From a virus (Duplodnaviria > Heunggongvirae > Uroviricota > Caudoviricetes), in IMG/VR virus record IMGVR_UViG_2799112330_000002, positions 282,107 to 346,106 of that record: a stretch of 64,000 bases of DNA. One strand, written 5' to 3'. The number at the start of each line of letters is the position of its first letter. Position 1 is the first letter of the stretch. A program made the translations under genes and the position numbers. Shown in pieces: positions 9,287 through 60,444 of this stretch. The notes under the pieces were generated by a model that did no database searches, had not been told where the DNA came from, and worked only from the letters and a program-made list of their open reading frames with translations.

Positions 9287-10087
9287 CTATTTTGCCCAAA
9301 TAGGTAATTGCTTCTTTTGATCAGCGTTCAAAAATAAAATATTACCAAATGCTCCATTTAGTTTACTGCTTGGAACCTGACTTATATGCCATTTGTCCAA
9401 AGATTTGAAACTACCATTATCAATTGCTGTCATACAATTAGCAAACATTGCTTCCATGTCTTTGACTTTTGATACATCCCAATTAGAAAGATCACAATCA
9501 AATGAACGACAATTATAAAACATAGTTCTCATATTTTTTACATTAGAAACATTCCATTTAGACAAATCAGCATTTAATGTTTTATCATGAGCAAACATAG
9601 AATTCATTAATGTAACTTTACTTACATCCCAATTCTCTAAACATTTTCCTTCAAATGAAGATCCATAAAACATCATACCCATATTTGTCACATTTGATAC
9701 ATCCCATCCAGAAAGATCAGAATCAAATTTAGAACAATGACTAAATAATGCTCTCATATTTGTCACATTTGATACATCCCATCCAGAAAGATCAGAATTG
9801 AATGATGTACAATTACTAAACATAGAATCCATTGTTGTTACATTACTTACGTCCCATAGTGATATGTCTATATTATGAGGATCAAGTCCATAAAACAATA
9901 AATTCATATTAGTAATTTTAGATACATCAATATCATTTAGATTAGCATTTTTACCTCTTTCTTTAAGTAATTCCCTTATCAATTTTTTTAGTTCAAATGT
10001 TTGTTCAGGAAAATAATTATAGTCTGGGCTAAGATTGTCTTTTGATATTCTGAATTTCTCTGTAATGAATTGATTTAGTTTCTTCAT
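9287..10087 (-). CDS. DUF285/BspA-like repeat protein with CTS-like leader (7 repeats, mostly 25 aa)
   Basis: MKKLNQFITE leader; WDVSNVTNM..MF repeats with a 75-bp period. Confidence 0.9.
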   Translation of the reverse strand: MKKLNQFITEKFRISKDNLSPDYNYFPEQTFELKKLIRELLKERGKNANLNDIDVSKITNMNLLFYGLDPHNIDISLWDVSNVTTMDSMFSNCTSFNSDLSGWDVSNVTNMRALFSHCSKFDSDLSGWDVSNVTNMGMMFYGSSFEGKCLENWDVSKVTLMNSMFAHDKTLNADLSKWNVSNVKNMRTMFYNCRSFDCDLSNWDVSKVKDMEAMFANCMTAIDNGSFKSLDKWHISQVPSSKLNGAFGNILFLNADQKKQLPIWAK

Positions 10088-10113
10088 ATATTAGATTAAC
10101 TAACTTATTTTAT

Positions 10114-10716
10114 TTATTCTTTATACCATGCAGGAGGATTATTTTCTAATGGTGATCCAAAAAACATTTTACACATATTGCTAACATGTCCTACATTCCA
10201 TCCAGAAATATCTCCATTAAATTTTGCATCCCAAAACATCCAATACATAGTATAAACTTTACTTGTATCCCATTTAGAGATATCTCCATTGAATTCTGAT
10301 TCTTTAAACATTTTAGCCATTTCTCCAACTTTGCTTACATTCCATTCAGATATGTCTCCGTTAAACTTTGATTTGGCAAATAAATAATGCATATTTTCAA
10401 CATTACTTACATCCCATTTAGATATATCTCCATTAAATTTAGAACAAGCAAACATACCTTCCATATCTGTAACATTACTTACATTCCAATCAGAGATATC
10501 TCCATCAAAATAAGTATCAGAAAATAAATAAGACATATCGGTTATTTCTGATGTATCTATATCATTAAGATCAGCATCATTACCTCTTTCTTTAATTAAT
10601 TTATCTACTATGTTATGTAATTCAAGTTTTGTCTTAGGATGATAATTATAATGATGTTCGAGATTATCTTTAGATATCCTGAATTTCTCTATAATGAATT
10701 GATTTAGTTTCTTCAT
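10114..10716 (-). CDS. DUF285/BspA-like repeat protein with CTS-like leader (5 repeats)
   Basis: MKKLNQFIIE; FNGDISKWDVSNV..M..MF repeats; SPLENNPPAWY cap. Confidence 0.9.
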   Translation of the reverse strand: MKKLNQFIIEKFRISKDNLEHHYNYHPKTKLELHNIVDKLIKERGNDADLNDIDTSEITDMSYLFSDTYFDGDISDWNVSNVTDMEGMFACSKFNGDISKWDVSNVENMHYLFAKSKFNGDISEWNVSKVGEMAKMFKESEFNGDISKWDTSKVYTMYWMFWDAKFNGDISGWNVGHVSNMCKMFFGSPLENNPPAWYKE

Positions 10717-10724
10717 ATATTATT

Positions 10725-11606
10725 TTACTTATATTTATACCATGCTGGTGGATTCTTTTCTAATGGGGAATAATCAAATATATCTTCCATAAATTGAACT
10801 TTTTTTACATCCCATTTAGATATATCTCCATTAAATTCTGATCTGTAAAACATATGATACATATCTTCAACATTACTTACATCCCATTGAGATATGTCTC
10901 CATTAAAATTAGATTTATAAAACAGATTTTCCATATTCTCAACATTACTAACATTCCATTGAGATATATCGCCATTGAATCTAGAATTAAAAAACATAGC
11001 TCTCATATTTGTAACATGACTTACATCCCATTTAGATATATCTCCATTAAACTTGGAATCCCAAAACATTCCACTAATATCTTCAACATTACTTACATTC
11101 CATTGAGAAATGTCATTATTAAAAATACTATGCATAAACATATTATCCATTTGTTTAACATTACTTACATCCCATTTTGATATATCTCCATTGAATTTAG
11201 AGTTTGTAAACATATATTCCATTCTTTCAACATTACTAACATCCCAGTCAGAGATATCTCCGTCAAATGGTGAATTAGCAAACATCCATACCATGCTTTC
11301 AACATTACTAACATCCCATCCAGAAATGTCACCATTGAATTGTTGTAATTTTGAGTTTCTGCCAAATTTATAATGAAATATATCAAACATACTTGTAATA
11401 TTTGAAGTATCTATATCATTAAGATTAGCATTTGGACCACGTTCTTCAATTAATTTATCTACTAATTTCTCTAATTCTTGTCTTGTTTCGGGGTGGTATT
11501 TATATTGATTAATGTTGTCTTTTGATAGTCGGAATTTCTCTGTTATATACCCATGTAAACGCGGGATCCTTTCAGCTTCTGAAATATAGTGGTTTAACTT
11601 TTTCAT
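10725..11606 (-). CDS. DUF285/BspA-like repeat protein with doubled leader (8 repeats, 24 aa)
   Basis: MKKLNHYISE-AERIPRLHGY-ITE; 72-bp repeat period. Confidence 0.9.
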   Translation of the reverse strand: MKKLNHYISEAERIPRLHGYITEKFRLSKDNINQYKYHPETRQELEKLVDKLIEERGPNANLNDIDTSNITSMFDIFHYKFGRNSKLQQFNGDISGWDVSNVESMVWMFANSPFDGDISDWDVSNVERMEYMFTNSKFNGDISKWDVSNVKQMDNMFMHSIFNNDISQWNVSNVEDISGMFWDSKFNGDISKWDVSHVTNMRAMFFNSRFNGDISQWNVSNVENMENLFYKSNFNGDISQWDVSNVEDMYHMFYRSEFNGDISKWDVKKVQFMEDIFDYSPLEKNPPAWYKYK

Positions 11607-11624
11607 ATATATTAATTATTAATT

Positions 11625-12365
11625 TTATTTATACCATGCTGGTGTATTTTTTTCTAATGGGGAATTATCAAACATATCTCTCATAGTTTTAATATTACTT
11701 ACATCCCATGCGGATATATCCCCATTAAACTGAGAATCAACAAACATATTTGCCATATTTTCAACATTTGAAACATTCCACATAGATATATCTCCATTAA
11801 ATTGTGATCCATAAAACATACCATCCATATATTTAACTTCACTTACATTCCATTTAGATATATCTCCATTGAATTTGGACTTTTCAAACATACCAGTCAT
11901 ACGTTCAACCTTACTTACATTCCATTGAGAAATATCTCCATTAAACTTAGATTTTGTAAACATATATGTAGCATATTTAACACTACTTACATCCCATTGA
12001 GAAATATCTTGATTAAATTTTGATTCTCTAAACATCCATGACATACTTTCAACATTACTAACATCCCATTTAAAGATATCTCCGTTAAATTTGGATTTAT
12101 AAAACATACTATTCATATCTTTAACATTACTTACATCCCAATTAGATATATTACCATTAAAATCAGATTCTTTAAATAAAAAAGACATATCGGTAATTTC
12201 AGAAGTATCTATATCATTTAGATCAGCATCATTCCCACGTTCTTTAATAAGTTTCTTTACTAATTCATCTAGTTCTCTTATTGTCTTAGGGTGGTATTTA
12301 TATTGATTAATGCTGTCTTTTGATATCCTAAATTTCTCTGTTATGAATTGATTTAGTGTTTTCAT
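11625..12365 (-). CDS. DUF285/BspA-like repeat protein with CTS-like leader (7 repeats)
   Basis: MKTLNQFITE; same repeats and C-cap. Confidence 0.9.
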   Translation of the reverse strand: MKTLNQFITEKFRISKDSINQYKYHPKTIRELDELVKKLIKERGNDADLNDIDTSEITDMSFLFKESDFNGNISNWDVSNVKDMNSMFYKSKFNGDIFKWDVSNVESMSWMFRESKFNQDISQWDVSSVKYATYMFTKSKFNGDISQWNVSKVERMTGMFEKSKFNGDISKWNVSEVKYMDGMFYGSQFNGDISMWNVSNVENMANMFVDSQFNGDISAWDVSNIKTMRDMFDNSPLEKNTPAWYK

Positions 12366-12385
12366 ATATATATTAATTATTAATT

Positions 12386-13075
12386 TTATTTACACCATTC
12401 TCTATACCATTTAGGTGGATTATTTTCTAATGGAGATTCATCAAACATCCATCTCTTCATTATAACATTATTAACATCCCATTTAGATATATCTTGATTA
12501 AAATTACTATGCTGAAACATTCCTTCCATATTTGTAACATTGCTTACATTCCATTTTGATATATCTTGATTGAATTTAGAACGATAAAACATACTATACA
12601 TATTCTTAACATTACTTACATCCCATTTAGATATATCGCCATTAAAAATAGCGCCAGCAAACATGTAACGTGTATTTTCAACATTACTTACATTCCATTC
12701 AGAGATGTCTCCATTAAATTGAGAATTTCTAAATAAATTATTCATTTCTTCAACATTACTTACATTCCATTCAGATATGTCTTGATTAAATGATGAGTCA
12801 GAAAACATCCAGTCCATATCTTTAACATTACTAACATCCCATCCAGAAATATCCCCATTAAACTTAGATTTTTCAAATAAATGAGACATATTAGTAATTT
12901 TTGAAGTATCTATATCATTAAGATCAGCATCATTTCCTCGTTCTTCAATCAATTTATTAATTAACTGTTTTAGTTCATCTCTTGTCTCGGGATGATAATT
13001 ATATTGATGCTGATAAGTTAGATTGTCTTTTGATAGACGAAATTTCTCTGTTATAAACTGACTTAACTTTTTCAT
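12386..13075 (-). CDS. DUF285/BspA-like repeat protein with CTS-like leader (6 repeats)
   Basis: MKKLSQFITE; same repeats and C-cap. Confidence 0.9.
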   Translation of the reverse strand: MKKLSQFITEKFRLSKDNLTYQHQYNYHPETRDELKQLINKLIEERGNDADLNDIDTSKITNMSHLFEKSKFNGDISGWDVSNVKDMDWMFSDSSFNQDISEWNVSNVEEMNNLFRNSQFNGDISEWNVSNVENTRYMFAGAIFNGDISKWDVSNVKNMYSMFYRSKFNQDISKWNVSNVTNMEGMFQHSNFNQDISKWDVNNVIMKRWMFDESPLENNPPKWYREWCK

Positions 13076-13087
13076 ATATATTAGATA

Positions 13088-13630
13088 TTAACTTATTTTT
13101 TTATACCATTTTGGTGGATTCTTTTCTAATGGACATTGTCTAAACATATCTTGCATATCTTCAACATTACTTACATTCCATTTTGATATATCCCCATTAA
13201 ATGGAGAGTTTTGAAACATTCTTAACATATCTTCAACCTTATTAACATCCCATTTAGAGATATCTCTATTGAATTTAGAATCCTTAAACATTCTATGCAT
13301 ATCTTCAACATTACTTACATCCCAATAAGATATGTCTCCGTTAAAGCTTGATAAACGAAACATATCTGTCATATCTTTAACTTTGCTTACATCCCATAAA
13401 GATATATCACCACTAAAATCAGATGCAAAAAACATACCAACCATACTTGTAATTTCAGAAGTATCTATATCATTAAGATCGGCATTATTACCTCTTTCTT
13501 TAATTAATTTTTTTACTAATTCTTCTAGTTCTCTTGCTGTTTTAGGATGATAATTATATTGATGCTGATAAGTTAGATTGTCTTTTGATAATCTGAATTT
13601 CTCTGTTATGAACTGATTTAGTTTCTTCAT
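13088..13630 (-). CDS. DUF285/BspA-like repeat protein with CTS-like leader (4 repeats), first gene of the array
   Basis: MKKLNQFITE; same repeats and C-cap. Confidence 0.9.
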   Translation of the reverse strand: MKKLNQFITEKFRLSKDNLTYQHQYNYHPKTARELEELVKKLIKERGNNADLNDIDTSEITSMVGMFFASDFSGDISLWDVSKVKDMTDMFRLSSFNGDISYWDVSNVEDMHRMFKDSKFNRDISKWDVNKVEDMLRMFQNSPFNGDISKWNVSNVEDMQDMFRQCPLEKNPPKWYKKIS

Positions 13631-54221: not shown

Positions 54222-54250
54222 ATTGAATATTCTGTATAATGAACTATATT
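54222..54250 (+). promoter_or_regulatory. promoter motif A
   Basis: ATTGAA-tattctgtataatga-ACTATATT. Confidence 0.8.
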
Positions 54251-54683: not shown

Positions 54684-55094
54684 ATGAGAAACTGGATACA
54701 TTTCAACGAGTTAAATGAGGCAATGAACTGCCACAGGTCCGAAAAGAATAATCTTACTGCTGGTATGTGTGCAACAATGTTTTGTGGAACTGACAGGTAT
54801 GCAATGGTAGTTACAAAGGTTACTTCAAACAAGACTATTCGGGTGGCTCATATCAAGGATGAAGACATGGAAAAGATCACCACAGTTGATGGAATTCAGT
54901 ATCTTCCAAATGAAGTGATCAATGAATATCTTTCTGAGGATCATCCTGACAAGTGGGGTTATTGGGGATATCGTACCGGTACAACTTATACACTTCGTAA
55001 GAATGGCCGATGGATGCCAAAGGGACAGGACATGTGGGGTACTTCTTCAATTCATGTTGGTCATGCAGAAAACTACAGAGATCCATCATTCTAA
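54684..55094 (+). CDS. hypothetical phage protein
   Basis: GMCATM..GTDRYA..V...YTLRKNGRW pattern. Confidence 0.8.
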   Translation: MRNWIHFNELNEAMNCHRSEKNNLTAGMCATMFCGTDRYAMVVTKVTSNKTIRVAHIKDEDMEKITTVDGIQYLPNEVINEYLSEDHPDKWGYWGYRTGTTYTLRKNGRWMPKGQDMWGTSSIHVGHAENYRDPSF

Positions 55095-55628: not shown

Positions 55629-56258
55629 TTAGATCTCAATAACACCTGACTGTGGAAGCCATCTGTTATTTTTTGTGTATTTCTTATGTGGTGTTGGATT
55701 AGGAGTTGGTTCAGGTTTTTCTTCTATAAGTGTCTCTTGTGTATTATTGTCTTCTTCAAATGATGCATAATAGAATCCTGAGAATTCATTTGTCATATAT
55801 TCTGTTGTATTGAATACTAATACTTCTTTCTTATATTTCTTGCACCATTCAAAATCATTTTTTGTTCCATGAGATTTGCCATCCCATATAGCAAGACAAA
55901 CATCACAATTTGCTATGATGTCCTCATTACGTCTAAATCCTGCAGATTTCCCATATTTTTCCCATTCTGCTTTGAAGATCTTTACTGGAATATTGTTTTT
56001 CTTTGCCCAATTCTCTCCAAATGAATCAGGACCTTTTGCTCCACCAGAGACTATTTCTTTTGGAGCACCAAACATATATTTGAATACATTGAATATTCTT
56101 TCAACAAGTTTCTCATCAGTAATAGATCTACTGCCAACAATTGCTAATCTTATTTCTGACTGTTTGTTCTTACTAGCCAATATTTGATACATGCCAGCCA
56201 AGTCTGTTATTACTCCATTAGTAAAATCTATTTCATATAGTCTTTGAAAATTCTCCAT
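55629..56258 (-). CDS. SLOG superfamily protein (YspA/DUF2493-like)
   Basis: LAIVGSR...IVSGGAKGPD...AEWEKYGKSAGFRRN...AIWDGKSHGT. Confidence 0.88.
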   Translation of the reverse strand: MENFQRLYEIDFTNGVITDLAGMYQILASKNKQSEIRLAIVGSRSITDEKLVERIFNVFKYMFGAPKEIVSGGAKGPDSFGENWAKKNNIPVKIFKAEWEKYGKSAGFRRNEDIIANCDVCLAIWDGKSHGTKNDFEWCKKYKKEVLVFNTTEYMTNEFSGFYYASFEEDNNTQETLIEEKPEPTPNPTPHKKYTKNNRWLPQSGVIEI

Positions 56259-56931: not shown

Positions 56932-57459
56932 TTATAACAAAATTATTCCTATTATGATTAATGCAATTACTAAATATATTCCAAGGTGAATCATCATTTT
57001 CTTGAAACATCTGCTCATATATTTTCTAGATATCATATCAAATACTATGAGGTAATTGTCATAATTTTCCGGTCCTACATGAGTAATGTCTAATGTAATA
57101 TATTCATACAGATTATTTATTTTGAACAATGAATTCAAAAGTGACATTTGTCTGTAGATCCAGTTCTTTATATATTCAATGTCATTTGTCTTATCATCAT
57201 CTAATTCAATGATCATTGATGAAATGTCTACTTTACCATTGATGTCTATTATTGGATTGATAATTCCATATAATCGTCCAATCCAATCTTTAGACAAATC
57301 ACATTTGATATATTTTTTAATAAGATCTTTGAATTCATTTGAATAGAATGCCTCACTTATCAAATTATAGTCCTTTGCATAGTAATAGATAGATTCCAAA
57401 AATGCTAATATCTTGAATATCAAAAAATTTGATAATATTTTCTTTATAAGCTTCATCAA
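56932..57459 (-). CDS. hypothetical protein with a C-terminal membrane anchor
   Basis: hydrophobic C-terminus. Confidence 0.75.
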   Translation of the reverse strand: MMKLIKKILSNFLIFKILAFLESIYYYAKDYNLISEAFYSNEFKDLIKKYIKCDLSKDWIGRLYGIINPIIDINGKVDISSMIIELDDDKTNDIEYIKNWIYRQMSLLNSLFKINNLYEYITLDITHVGPENYDNYLIVFDMISRKYMSRCFKKMMIHLGIYLVIALIIIGIILL

Positions 57460-57561
57460 AATAAATACATAAATTTATTTTTATATAATATAAAATAGAA
57501 AAAGATACAATTCCTATTCAATTAAAAAATAACAAAATTTTTAAATTTTTTATATAATTTT

Positions 57562-57590
57562 ATTGAATTTTTTAGAATTTTTTCTATTTT
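57562..57590 (+). promoter_or_regulatory. promoter motif A variant upstream of the sigma gene
   Basis: ATTGAA-N15-TCTATTTT. Confidence 0.6.
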
Positions 57591-57670
57591 TATATTGAAA
57601 CATAAAGTCTATTCAGTTAGACAATTGTTGGATGTTAAAATAAAATGTATAAAATAAATATAAAGCGAAT

Positions 57671-58876
57671 ATGAAAAATTTTTCTAATTTTAATGAAGCA
57701 AAGGATTCTAAATCTTTGAATGTACAGAAAGACACAATTAACTATATTTCTGCAGATGATTTGAAGAAATATTTGGAGATTGCATCCAAATTCATTTCTG
57801 ATGATGCTAAAGAAGTTATCAACTGGTTGATTATCAATAATGAAACATATCTTCAAGATTTGGATCCACAGTTGCAAGCAGACAATGCATTAGAATATTT
57901 CTACAACAAGGGTCTACCATCAGATCCACATTTGAAAGAACTTTATCAGGCAATTACTCGTATTAGTAGAAATGAACGTTTGTTAGAAATCCCAGTATTT
58001 CAGACAAAGGAACAATTTGAATCAATTATTACAAAGAAGATTTCACCAGATGAGATTCTTCTTGATTTGAAGTCAGAAGCAGGCAGAAACAAAATTGCCA
58101 AGCAGTATGAGCCATTGATCCATAAGATCATCAGACAGTGGTTCAACAAGTCATCTCTTGGTTATGACGATCTTATTTCTGTGGCTTATGAAGCCCTTAC
58201 TTATGCTATGAATTCATTTGGTAAACGTAAAGTACGTGATGCTAATGGAAAATGGGTTGAAGCAGAAAAGGAAGAGAACAGTAAGTCAGCAAACTATTCA
58301 TTTACTCAGTATGCTGCTTATTGTATCAATAATGGTATCAAGGATGAGATCAAGCATAAGTCACATCTTGTAAGAGTTCCTGCATCACAGCAGAAAAAAG
58401 AAAGAGATCAGAAGGGACATAACACTAAGTCATATGCGGTATCTGGATCTCAGTATGTTGTGCATGACAAAGATGGAAAGGGAAAGACATTATTTGATTT
58501 CATTGACAATGGAGAAAATGGCAACAAAGGTATTGATCAGGAAGATCTCAATATGCTATGGAAAACAGTCTACAGTAAGTTGAATGACAACTTTAGTGAA
58601 AGAGACCTTAAGATCTTCTATTCATTATTTGGTCTTAACGGTTATGCACAGGTTAAAGCTAAGAAACTGGCTAAAGACAATGGTATTGCAGAATCATCAA
58701 TTACAGCTATCAAGATGAAAGTTATCAAATTCATCAAGAATGACAAGACATTATGGATGGCATTCAATGAAATATTGAATATTGTTGGTGAGTCTAGACA
58801 AGAAAAATATAATGAAGAAGATCAGTATTCTGAAGCTCATAGTATGCCAAATATATATAATATGAGAAGTCTATAA
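57671..58876 (+). CDS. phage sigma-70 family RNA polymerase sigma factor with N-terminal extension and CTS-like leader
   Basis: region 2 (QYEPLIHKI...YDDLISVAYEALTYAMNSF; FTQYAAYCINNGI); region 4 HTH (FSERDLKIF..LFGL...KLAKDNGIAESSITAIKMK); leader MKNFSNFNE. Confidence 0.85.
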   Translation: MKNFSNFNEAKDSKSLNVQKDTINYISADDLKKYLEIASKFISDDAKEVINWLIINNETYLQDLDPQLQADNALEYFYNKGLPSDPHLKELYQAITRISRNERLLEIPVFQTKEQFESIITKKISPDEILLDLKSEAGRNKIAKQYEPLIHKIIRQWFNKSSLGYDDLISVAYEALTYAMNSFGKRKVRDANGKWVEAEKEENSKSANYSFTQYAAYCINNGIKDEIKHKSHLVRVPASQQKKERDQKGHNTKSYAVSGSQYVVHDKDGKGKTLFDFIDNGENGNKGIDQEDLNMLWKTVYSKLNDNFSERDLKIFYSLFGLNGYAQVKAKKLAKDNGIAESSITAIKMKVIKFIKNDKTLWMAFNEILNIVGESRQEKYNEEDQYSEAHSMPNIYNMRSL

Positions 58877-59398
58877 ATGAAATCATTTAATAATTATATA
58901 AAAGAAGAATTTGAACTTTATGGAGTAAAGAATCTTGAAGTTGTTTTTGATTGTAATCCAGAACAGAAATTTCTAGAATTTCAAGTACCGGAAACATATA
59001 ATGAAGACAGTTTCCAGATCTATGTTCAAGACGTATTTCTATCTCAACTCCCAGGTGATCCAAAACTTGCTGAGCATTTCTTTGGAAAGAACAGAAAAAA
59101 CATTTTTGATGTATATTTTGTTTATGACAAATATGAAAAGGATGATGAATCAACAAGTGATGATACATTTGAGTTTATGACATCTTATGATTCCAAATCA
59201 AATGATGAGAAATATGCTTATATAAGAGTTGAAAAGATGCAATATGTAATTAAGTTTGATGTGTTTGAATATAAATGTGAAGATGTGAATGATACAAAAG
59301 ACATCTTAGTAGACATATTCAAGACATGTGAAACAAATACAACAAACAAATTCCCATTGAAATTAGTACTTAATGAGGATGAAATGAAATATATTTAA
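58877..59398 (+). CDS. acidic hypothetical protein with CTS-like leader
   Basis: MKSFNNYIKE; starts right after the sigma stop. Confidence 0.75.
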   Translation: MKSFNNYIKEEFELYGVKNLEVVFDCNPEQKFLEFQVPETYNEDSFQIYVQDVFLSQLPGDPKLAEHFFGKNRKNIFDVYFVYDKYEKDDESTSDDTFEFMTSYDSKSNDEKYAYIRVEKMQYVIKFDVFEYKCEDVNDTKDILVDIFKTCETNTTNKFPLKLVLNEDEMKYI

Positions 59399-59417: not shown

Positions 59418-60389
59418 ATGTTGAAGACAAAGAAATTTTGGTATATATTATTGTTTTCTATACTTTATCTTATTGTTGCAGGTAGTTCATTCTGGCATGC
59501 TATAGCTTTCTTTGGCTTAGCGAACAATACAGTCATGAGTATTATTCTTGCTTTTGCATTTGAGGTTGGACAAGCTGCAGTATTGTTTTCATTGTTGACA
59601 TCTAAGAAGGACCGAAATAGAGTCATCCCATGGGCATTGATGACAATGTTTACTTTAGTACAGGTTATTGGTAATGTATATAGTTCATATAAATACATCA
59701 TATCAAATTCAGTAGCTGATCTAAGATATTTCAAAGAACCAATATTCATTTGGACACAATTACCTGATGATCAGGCTACAGTCATCATAACCTATGTAGT
59801 TGGAGCTATTCTCCCTATTGCTGCTCTTTTATTGACATCTATGATAACTAACTATTTGACAGATGAAGAAGAAGCTAAATTGGAAAATAAGAAGCTAATT
59901 GATGAACAAAATGAAGAGAAACTTCAAGAGGTCATTGAAAAAGCACCAGAAACCACATTTATAGAAGAACAACCTGAGCAAGAAGAGGAAACATTTTTTG
60001 GAAAAATACCTGAAAAGGGACCAGAACAACCACCTATCATGTTAGAACCTGAACAGGTAAAAGAGTTCTATGAAACAGAAAAATTACCAGAAGAGAAAAA
60101 AGAAGAGCCTAAATATGATTCTGTAGATGAAGCAATAGAACACGCTCATGATAATGAAACTGGATTAACTGGCATAGAGAACAAGATAAAGGAAGAAGAA
60201 AGTAGTTTAGACAATGATCCTGCTGTAATAGATAGACAAGTAAATGAAAATACTATTGATAAGGAAGATACAGACAAAACTATTAAAGAAGATGATCCTA
60301 ATCTAAAGCAAGCAGATATGTTAATGGGTGGTAATATATTAAGTAAGAATCATAGGGACTCCCATTTTATAAACATTGATAATAAATAA
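59418..60389 (+). CDS. multi-pass membrane protein with a long acidic disordered tail
   Basis: four TM-like helices in the first ~145 aa, then an E/D/P-rich tail. Confidence 0.8.
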   Translation: MLKTKKFWYILLFSILYLIVAGSSFWHAIAFFGLANNTVMSIILAFAFEVGQAAVLFSLLTSKKDRNRVIPWALMTMFTLVQVIGNVYSSYKYIISNSVADLRYFKEPIFIWTQLPDDQATVIITYVVGAILPIAALLLTSMITNYLTDEEEAKLENKKLIDEQNEEKLQEVIEKAPETTFIEEQPEQEEETFFGKIPEKGPEQPPIMLEPEQVKEFYETEKLPEEKKEEPKYDSVDEAIEHAHDNETGLTGIENKIKEEESSLDNDPAVIDRQVNENTIDKEDTDKTIKEDDPNLKQADMLMGGNILSKNHRDSHFINIDNK

Positions 60390-60414
60390 GTATAGATTAT
60401 ATATTTTATATAGA

Positions 60415-60444
60415 AAGAAGGGATAGCAATATCTCTTCTTTTTT
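60415..60444 (+). terminator. intrinsic terminator
   Basis: AAGAAGGGATA-gcaa-TATCTCTTCTT followed by a T tract. Confidence 0.75.

Follow-up and report, generated by a model that had tools for sequence, protein, structure and literature searches.

A divergent sigma-70-family factor with a leader-like N-terminus, and a possible case of virion delivery, in an RNA-polymerase-less, T4-related jumbo phage

The stretch of DNA considered here (the window: 64,000 nucleotides (nt), C82:282107-346106) belongs to C82, a viral contig of 410,106 bp and 29% G+C, and encodes a sigma-70-family factor, hereafter sigma-1, whose first residues resemble a leader carried by many other proteins of the same phage. 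The sigma-1 gene lies at positions 57671..58876 of the window on the + strand and specifies a protein of 401 amino acids (aa) and 46.3 kDa, assigned to the family through phrog_351, Foldseek and structural alignment. A preliminary description of this locus, which proposed that the factor might be delivered by the virion, let the feature begin at 57562; a promoter motif is indeed found there, but the gene itself starts at 57671. The stop codon of sigma-1 abuts the start codon of a second open reading frame (ORF), ORF2, in a TAAATG junction. ORF2 (58877..59398, +) encodes an acidic protein of 173 aa with an isoelectric point (pI) of 4.4 that begins with a strict ten-residue form of the leader, MKSFNNYIKE, followed by E; it belongs to no known family, having no significant match in Pfam or PHROG, and its leader is retained in 6/6 homologues. 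The coupled, acidic and leader-carrying downstream protein of the preliminary description is thus confirmed. After a 19-nt gap, a third gene on the same strand (59418..60389, +) encodes a membrane protein of 323 aa whose tail is acidic; its apparent homologues, sharing the N-terminal sequence, are located downstream in L011, L044 and L045. A hairpin followed by a T-run (60412..60443, +) is the likely terminator, so that sigma-1 opens a unit made up of the sigma gene, the acidic leader protein, the membrane protein and the terminator, under a promoter of the class termed A below.

From a structural perspective, the sigma regions 2 and 4 that had been recognised at first reading are both borne out. 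Sigma-1 matches PHROG 351, 'RNA polymerase sigma factor', with an E value of 1.4e-18, and Pfam Sigma70_r2 matches residues 144-187 with 20.1 bits, under the cut-off of 24. A profile of 20 homologues run against the PDB retrieved sigma factors only, weakly (best E 9e-4). An AlphaFold2 model built from 65 homologues reached a predicted local distance difference test score (pLDDT) of 74, and the best 50 Foldseek matches listed for this model were all primary-type sigma chains (sigma70/SigA/HrdB), at E ~1e-6. The sigma-2 domain (residues 134-231; 58070..58363, +), supported by structural superposition and by Pfam Sigma70_r2, was aligned by VIA-align with residues 372-451 of Escherichia coli sigma70 (Z 11-12, root-mean-square deviation 1.9-2.2 A over 75-80 residues, 23% identity); it also superposes on the N-domain of SigE and contains an insert of ~20 residues (K185-S208). 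Its segment resembling regions 2.3/2.4 is FTQYAAYCINNGI, the likeness to the sigma70 motif being judged by eye. The sigma-4 region, a predicted helix-turn-helix at residues 289-372 (58535..58786, +), rests on predicted helices (289-307, 310-320, 330-337 and 341-357 in the model) and on structural alignment: no Pfam region-4 match was obtained for sigma-1, and the whole-chain alignments to sigma70, sigmaS, sigma28 and SigB extend to model residues 357-374, which correspond to sigma70 600-613 (region 4).

The N-terminal extension of about 130 aa that was reported in the preliminary description is real and conserved. Residues 20-133 (57728..58069, +) form a family-specific, acidic helical N-domain predicted with a pLDDT of ~93 and containing many residues invariant across the family; residues 1-135 have a pI of 4.8, and the model of the domain has an overall pLDDT of 84. 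No fold match was found for it either among 48,161 PDB representatives (best Z 3.5) or among the AFDB clusters (E >= 0.75). Residues 1-13 have a pLDDT <50 in both models. At E <= 1e-3, the sigma-1 family numbers 398 metagenomic clusters, whose contigs reach 454 kb. In cultivated phages, tblastn searches gave no sigma-1 match at 1e-5, and at E <= 1 gave weak region-2 matches only (E 5e-4 or worse), which belong to Vibrio phage sigmas and unannotated faecal contigs. We regard it as very probable that sigma-1 is a functional sigma factor acting on the host core enzyme, core binding and promoter-specific initiation being predicted from the sequence and the models.

As for the genome in which this factor resides, C82 carries baseplate genes and codes for a major capsid protein of the gp23 type (PF07068), a family-B DNA polymerase of the T4 type (phrog_262, E 6e-100) and a T4-type S77 (gp21-type) prohead protease (PF03420, 46.8 bits, C82:82997-83326). 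The PF03420 assignment was confirmed on the 565-aa ORF concerned (C82:82910-84607), in which the protease domain covers residues 30-139 only; the long C-terminal part may represent a fused scaffold or core protein. Moreover, L/I-x-E sites occur at residues 15, 36 and 39 of the capsid protein ORF directly following the protease ORF. No RNA polymerase, T7-like or multisubunit, was found on C82 (PF00940 gave nothing, and PF00562 matched only on the bacterial contig C32); likewise, no gp55-type sigma was found there, phrog_234 and phrog_12791 being without a match at E <= 1. Since gp23 and the T4-type polymerase and protease are present and an RNA polymerase is not, C82 falls among the T4-related jumbo phages without an RNA polymerase that Iyer et al. 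(PMC7824862) call 'group 2'. RpoD-like sigmas are already known from phages of this group, where they are assumed to work with the host core enzyme, so that a sigma of this kind is ordinary among them (PMC7824862, PMC13282480). The 'Jug' gut phages were ruled out as the identity of C82, since they encode RpoC and the C82 phage has no polymerase.

The leader was studied on a crude gene call of 480 ORFs for C82 and on the bacterial contigs with which C82 had been binned (a bin of 1.9 Mb and 103 contigs). The pattern M-[KR]-x-[LIFMVY]-x-x-[FYW..]-[ILV]-x-E starts 82/480 C82 ORFs vs 1/1316 in the co-binned bacterium, and it is found at 2/2562 internal Met positions. About half of the 82 leader genes are DUF285 paralogues (MKKLNQFITEKFRLSKDNL); 40 non-DUF285 leader genes encode unrelated proteins (e.g., MKSLNNYINES, MKDIKQYITEG), many of them clustered just before the genes for the protease and the capsid protein (C82 63-82 kb), and at least one leader protein is clearly enzymatic, namely a HAD hydrolase similar to polynucleotide kinase-phosphatase. 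Positions 2, 4, 7, 8 and 10 are fixed and the x positions vary freely, which points to conservation at the protein level. In the capsid-targeting sequence (CTS) of T4, targeting depends on residues 4 and 7 and cleavage on residues 8 and 10 (Glu), and the ten-residue CTS suffices to load foreign proteins, beta-galactosidase included (PMC9026906). The fixed positions of the C82 leader coincide with these functionally mapped positions 4, 7, 8 and 10. Furthermore, the start of T4 IPII and IPIII (MKTYQEFIAEA, from the T4 record) scores 13.2 bits on a position-specific scoring matrix (PSSM) of the C82 leader, for which 37 non-paralogous leaders were used. The relative G001, whose sigma is 41% identical, has 55 ORFs with the tag MKSLxxYIxE and also possesses an S77 protease. 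We consider it likely that the leader (or tag) is a capsid-loading and processing signal.

The start of sigma-1 itself, residues 1-9 MKNFSNFNE and then Ala (57671..57697, +), equals the leader minus one residue, with F4, F7 and E9 and without I/L at position 8, and it holds a candidate protease site, F-N-E before A. The preliminary description, which had singled out this leader-like start, had also found it weaker than the DUF285 leaders, and both statements hold. On the gapped (one-gap) PSSM it scores 16.0 bits, a value reached by 1/1316 co-binned bacterial N-termini and 3/2450 internal Met positions, i.e., an empirical chance p of ~0.001. Among 119 sigma-1 homologues, in which the forms were counted with overlapping patterns, a hydrophobic-x-Glu motif lies within the first 11 residues in 101 and is missing in ~15%; 67/119 have a nine-residue form of the leader (e.g., MRNFSQINEA), only 3/119 the canonical ten-residue one, 10/119 carry Asp for Glu, and the remaining homologues have a six-residue form (MKKITEG, MKTLTER) or no site. 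The general tag is strictly ten residues long in genomes whose sigma has nine or six, and no co-variation of the sigma tag with the tag of its own genome was seen in the relatives examined; judged from these sequences, the sigma start is a conserved deviation from the tag, without co-variation. In L041, a DUF285-type paralogue (L041:11722-12186) starts with MKTLTERL, the same shortened leader as that of the L041 sigma (MKTLTERK), and its sister genes retain the ten-residue leader. Because paralogue and sigma share the shortened MKTLTER tag, the comparison suggests that 5' ends have been swapped among tagged genes, the sigma taking part.

Two main promoter-like classes could be defined in this genome. 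Class A, i.e., motif A of the preliminary description, has the consensus ATTGAAT-N15/16-ACTATATTAttAaTGTAAttAA and is present in ~40 strict copies, 50-70 nt upstream of small non-structural genes; in essence it is a near-consensus two-box promoter of the sigma70 type, TTGAAT-N16-TATATT, to which a conserved TGTAAT block is added. This third block, TGTAAT(TAA), which lies 5-6 nt after the -10-like box (window 4412-63898 and contig-wide), could be either the start-site region or a second recognition element. A similar motif is found in the relative, TTTGAATTTTT ... TATTTTATAATTGTAAT, and in the relative the third block is often TAnnTTTG-TAA, resembling the Bacteroidota -7 box. Class B, TTTATTTTTAATTATATA, occurs in ~60 copies 30-60 nt upstream of structural genes and DUF285 arrays, is conserved in the relative, and also precedes leader-carrying genes. 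In fact, 60 strict-leader genes are in class-B units vs 2 in class-A units, the figures for the other genes being 169 vs 137 (Fisher p 9e-12); ORF2 is one of the two in class-A units.

The promoter of sigma-1 (57560..57606, +) is TTATTGAAT-N15-TCTATTTT-TATATTGAAAC, a variant of the class-A consensus, as anticipated in the preliminary description; it scores 28.6 bits on the class-A position weight matrix (PWM) and ranks 24 of 820,120 genome positions. No class-B motif was found between this promoter and the ATG of sigma-1. A class-B-like PWM hit at 57468 (rank 141) was considered as a late promoter and rejected, being the reverse complement of the class-A -10 region of the divergent gene. Because strict-leader genes almost never have class A, the sigma unit behaves, by its promoter, like a non-structural gene.

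C82 also encodes a second phage sigma (the sigma-2 gene, C82:248436-249674, or L005:1099-2337, outside the window), a protein of 412 aa with a GTG start and no leader. Its sequence is much more canonical than that of sigma-1 (Pfam region 2, 29.7 bits), and there is no significant pairwise similarity between the two, for which reason their being recent paralogues was rejected. The region upstream of the second sigma gene fits neither class A nor class B, and, as far as the sequence goes, either phage sigma may serve either class.

On the other side of sigma-1, a divergent gene for a 175-aa membrane protein (56932..57459, -) is preceded, within the 214-nt spacer that it shares with the sigma gene, by a class-A-like promoter of its own, and this synteny is conserved. 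The sigma unit also adjoins a gene for a SLOG/YspA (DprA-like) protein (window 55629-56258, -; PF10686, E 2e-10; phrog_289, E 8e-30), a neighbour that stands beside the sigma in the relatives L042 and L044 as well. At window 54684-55094, a 136-aa ORF starts with MRNWIHFNELNEA, which is weakly leader-like (6.7 bits), and is preceded by two tandem class-A promoters (near 54222 and 54620) in a 737-nt ORF-free gap. The DUF285 paralogues (window 9287-13630 and ~ten other C82 arrays) share a conserved C-terminal end, PLEKNPPAWYKE-stop. The DNA of these 3' ends, CCAGCATGGTATAAAGAATAA, looks intergenic in k-mer scans; this second enriched 'motif' was rejected as a promoter, being the coding 3' end of the paralogues (PPAWYKE stop).

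With regard to the host, Shine-Dalgarno-like sites precede 22/381 phage genes (6%) vs 715/1148 genes (62%) of the co-binned bacterial contigs, and on account of this difference the co-binned metagenome-assembled genome (MAG) was rejected as probably not the host. The species-genome set contains a single relative, likewise a contig of 400 kb that had been placed in a low-G+C Erysipelotrichaceae MAG, and the co-binning of phage and bacterium probably reflects low G+C. A host that does not use Shine-Dalgarno sites, such as a member of the Bacteroidota, is plausible from these gene starts. Another contig of the same bin, C78 (89 kb, 25.8% G+C), has Shine-Dalgarno-like sites at 0/66 ORFs, the other bacterial contigs having 52-100%, and is probably another phage fragment binned by composition. 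The Bacteroidota promoter TTTG-N17-23-TAnnTTTG was searched for throughout the genome: none of its 51 copies precedes a gene, nor is there any enrichment of TAnnTTTG, with the proviso that this consensus may not be that of the host.

The reading that we favour, although we hold it to be about evenly poised between right and wrong, is that sigma-1 is made after infection and is not needed from the virion, its tag being vestigial or of minor use. Sigma-1 would be expressed after infection from its class-A promoter, would use its sigma-2 and sigma-4 domains to bind the host core enzyme and, like SPO1 gp28 and T4 gp55, would switch transcription over to promoters of a phage class. The leader-like tail would be a shortened relic of the 5' ends swapped among tagged genes in this phage group and would at most load a few copies into proheads. 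This reading is favoured by the presence of a class-A member (rank 24) as the sole promoter of sigma-1, by the non-canonical tag across most of the family, by the sigma identity of the protein in a phage where neither an RNA polymerase nor a gp55-type sigma was found and a second sigma is encoded, and by the RpoD-like sigmas of other group-2 phages. A number of observations, on the other hand, weigh against it. The match of the N-terminus to the leader is improbable by chance (~0.001), the tail lies outside the fold, which would suit a removable tag, and the leader-like start is retained in most homologues, even at identities as low as 41%. The sigma opens a same-strand run of 1 to ~17 tagged genes in 7/7 relatives examined, whose sigmas are 41-66% identical to sigma-1, and an ORF of 171-176 aa with an ORF2-like N-terminal motif, taken on this basis as a putative ORF2 homologue, follows either directly or 1-4 genes after the sigma in 7/7. 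Moreover, a class-B-like motif is found 58-71 nt upstream of the sigma ATG, together with a distal class A, in L040, L041 and L043 (L042 and L044 are without such a motif before the sigma); because of this motif, the sigmas of the former three are probably also made late, during head assembly, as far as timing can be read from motifs. Lastly, should the host be of the Bacteroidota type, no host-type promoter would be visible in this genome, and a pre-made sigma would therefore be needed.

These same observations feed the main alternative, which is the one put forward in the preliminary description and which we regard as possible yet doubtful: the shortened tag would load sigma-1 into the prohead, the S77 protease would cut after Glu9, and the protein would be ejected with the DNA and arm the host core for the ~40 class-A promoters, including its own, so that early transcription would proceed without the host sigma. 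The specificity subunit alone would be delivered, and the second sigma or another factor would serve the late class B. What stands of that proposal is the setting, i.e., a leader that is a real N-terminal signal (82/480 ORFs vs 1/1316 bacterial) and matches the T4 CTS at positions 4, 7, 8 and 10 (13.2 bits for IPII/IPIII), an S77 protease and a gp23 capsid protein, leader genes linked to the late promoter, and the lack of a phage RNA polymerase and of enriched Bacteroidota-type promoters. The sigma-1 tail in turn is floppy, matches the leader at p ~0.001 and has a hydrophobic-x-Glu in 85% of homologues, the L041 paralogue of the DUF285 type shares the shortened leader MKTLTER of the sigma, and the sigma heads tagged-gene islands in 7/7 relatives, in 3 of them with a proximal late motif; the ten residues of the T4 CTS are enough even for a foreign cargo such as beta-galactosidase (PMC9026906). 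What does not stand so well is the tag and the promoter of the sigma gene: the tag is systematically non-canonical (canonical in 3/119), ~15% of homologues are without a site, six-residue forms such as MKKITEG are without the position-7 residue needed for T4 targeting, and the only promoter of the C82 copy belongs to class A, the class found before small non-structural genes. Furthermore, the proposal presupposes a host sigma that would not read motif A; class A resembles an ordinary sigma70-type promoter that many bacterial primary sigmas could read, and it could also be assigned to the second sigma or to the host sigma; the best matches in phage collections are weak (E 5e-4 or worse), and the clade is known from the sequences of its uncultivated members.

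The leader could also be something other than a capsid-loading signal in this phage group (a translation-start element on leader-poor mRNAs that have no Shine-Dalgarno site, a degradation tag or a mark of 5'-end recombination), in which case the likeness of the sigma start to it would say nothing about destination. This is in our view unlikely. Its presence on 17% of ORFs, far above T4, the ordinary-looking enzymes among tagged proteins (the HAD hydrolase) and the shortened leader shared in L041, which points to 5'-end exchange, are in its favour; it is at odds with conservation at the protein level with positions 2, 4, 7, 8 and 10 fixed, with the practical lack of the tag (1/1316) in the co-binned AT-rich bacterium, with its link to the late structural promoter class and its clusters upstream of protease and capsid genes, and with the match to the T4 CTS in a genome that has a T4-type protease cutting after Glu. 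More improbable still is that sigma-1 is a pro-sigma, held inactive or tethered by its leader until the prohead protease trims it, which would tie the promoter switch to head assembly. Pro-sigmaE and pro-sigmaK of Bacillus sporulation offer a loose parallel, and the hydrophobic-x-Glu site at the extreme N-terminus, the floppy tail and the S77 protease would suit such a model, but a sigma would hardly be blocked by nine residues that lie outside its fold, some homologues have no such site, and T4-type prohead proteases act within proheads (PMC9026906).

Even if sigma-1 is not delivered, the present analysis describes a large set of tagged proteins linked to a T4-type protease and late promoters, two clean promoter classes for an abundant uncultivated phage group, and a family of sigmas whose N-terminal domain is new and whose acidic partner gene is conserved. 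Phages are known to start their programme either through host-type promoters or by injecting a whole RNA polymerase. If delivery were true, the injection of a sigma alone would be a third, cheaper route by which early genes are freed from the promoter rules of the host, and it would explain how giant phages that have no polymerase come to have promoters unlike those of the host. A search of the literature turned up no paper that describes a virion-packaged sigma.

Among known systems, the RpoD-like sigmas of group-2 jumbo phages are the closest in setting: their phages likewise have a gp23 capsid, an S77 protease and a DNA polymerase of the T4 type and encode no RNA polymerase of their own. 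These sigmas too are full-length proteins with sigma-2 and sigma-4 domains, presumed to bring the host core to phage promoters. Sigma-1 differs from them in being very divergent, in its N-domain of ~115 residues, in its leader-like tail and in heading a tagged operon. The phages that have phage-encoded sigmas of other types provide a further comparison: SPO1 gp28 and T4 gp55 are produced from a promoter of an early class and redirect the host core to a later class. Unlike gp55, sigma-1 shows no sequence relation to that family (phrog_234 and phrog_12791 gave nothing on C82), is far larger and has a sigma-4 domain. Whole virion RNA polymerases are injected by N4, phiKZ-like and crAss-like phages. 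If delivery were true, the likeness would lie in bringing one's own promoter-reading machinery and in early genes that need not use host-type promoters, and the difference in that only the specificity subunit would be injected and the host core enzyme would be used. The virion RNA polymerase of phiKZ is described in PMC13282480; delivery of a sigma in the particle is proposed neither there nor in PMC7824862. With T4 IPI-III and Alt, the C82 system shares a tag of about ten residues beginning with MK-, hydrophobic residues at positions 4 and 7, a Glu site and a protease of the gp21 family in the genome, and Alt shows that an injected protein can retune the host RNA polymerase. It is unlike them in that the cargo would be a 46-kDa sigma, that the tag of this sigma is one residue short, with Glu at position 9, that cleavage and packaging are predicted here, and that ~80 genes are tagged instead of a handful.

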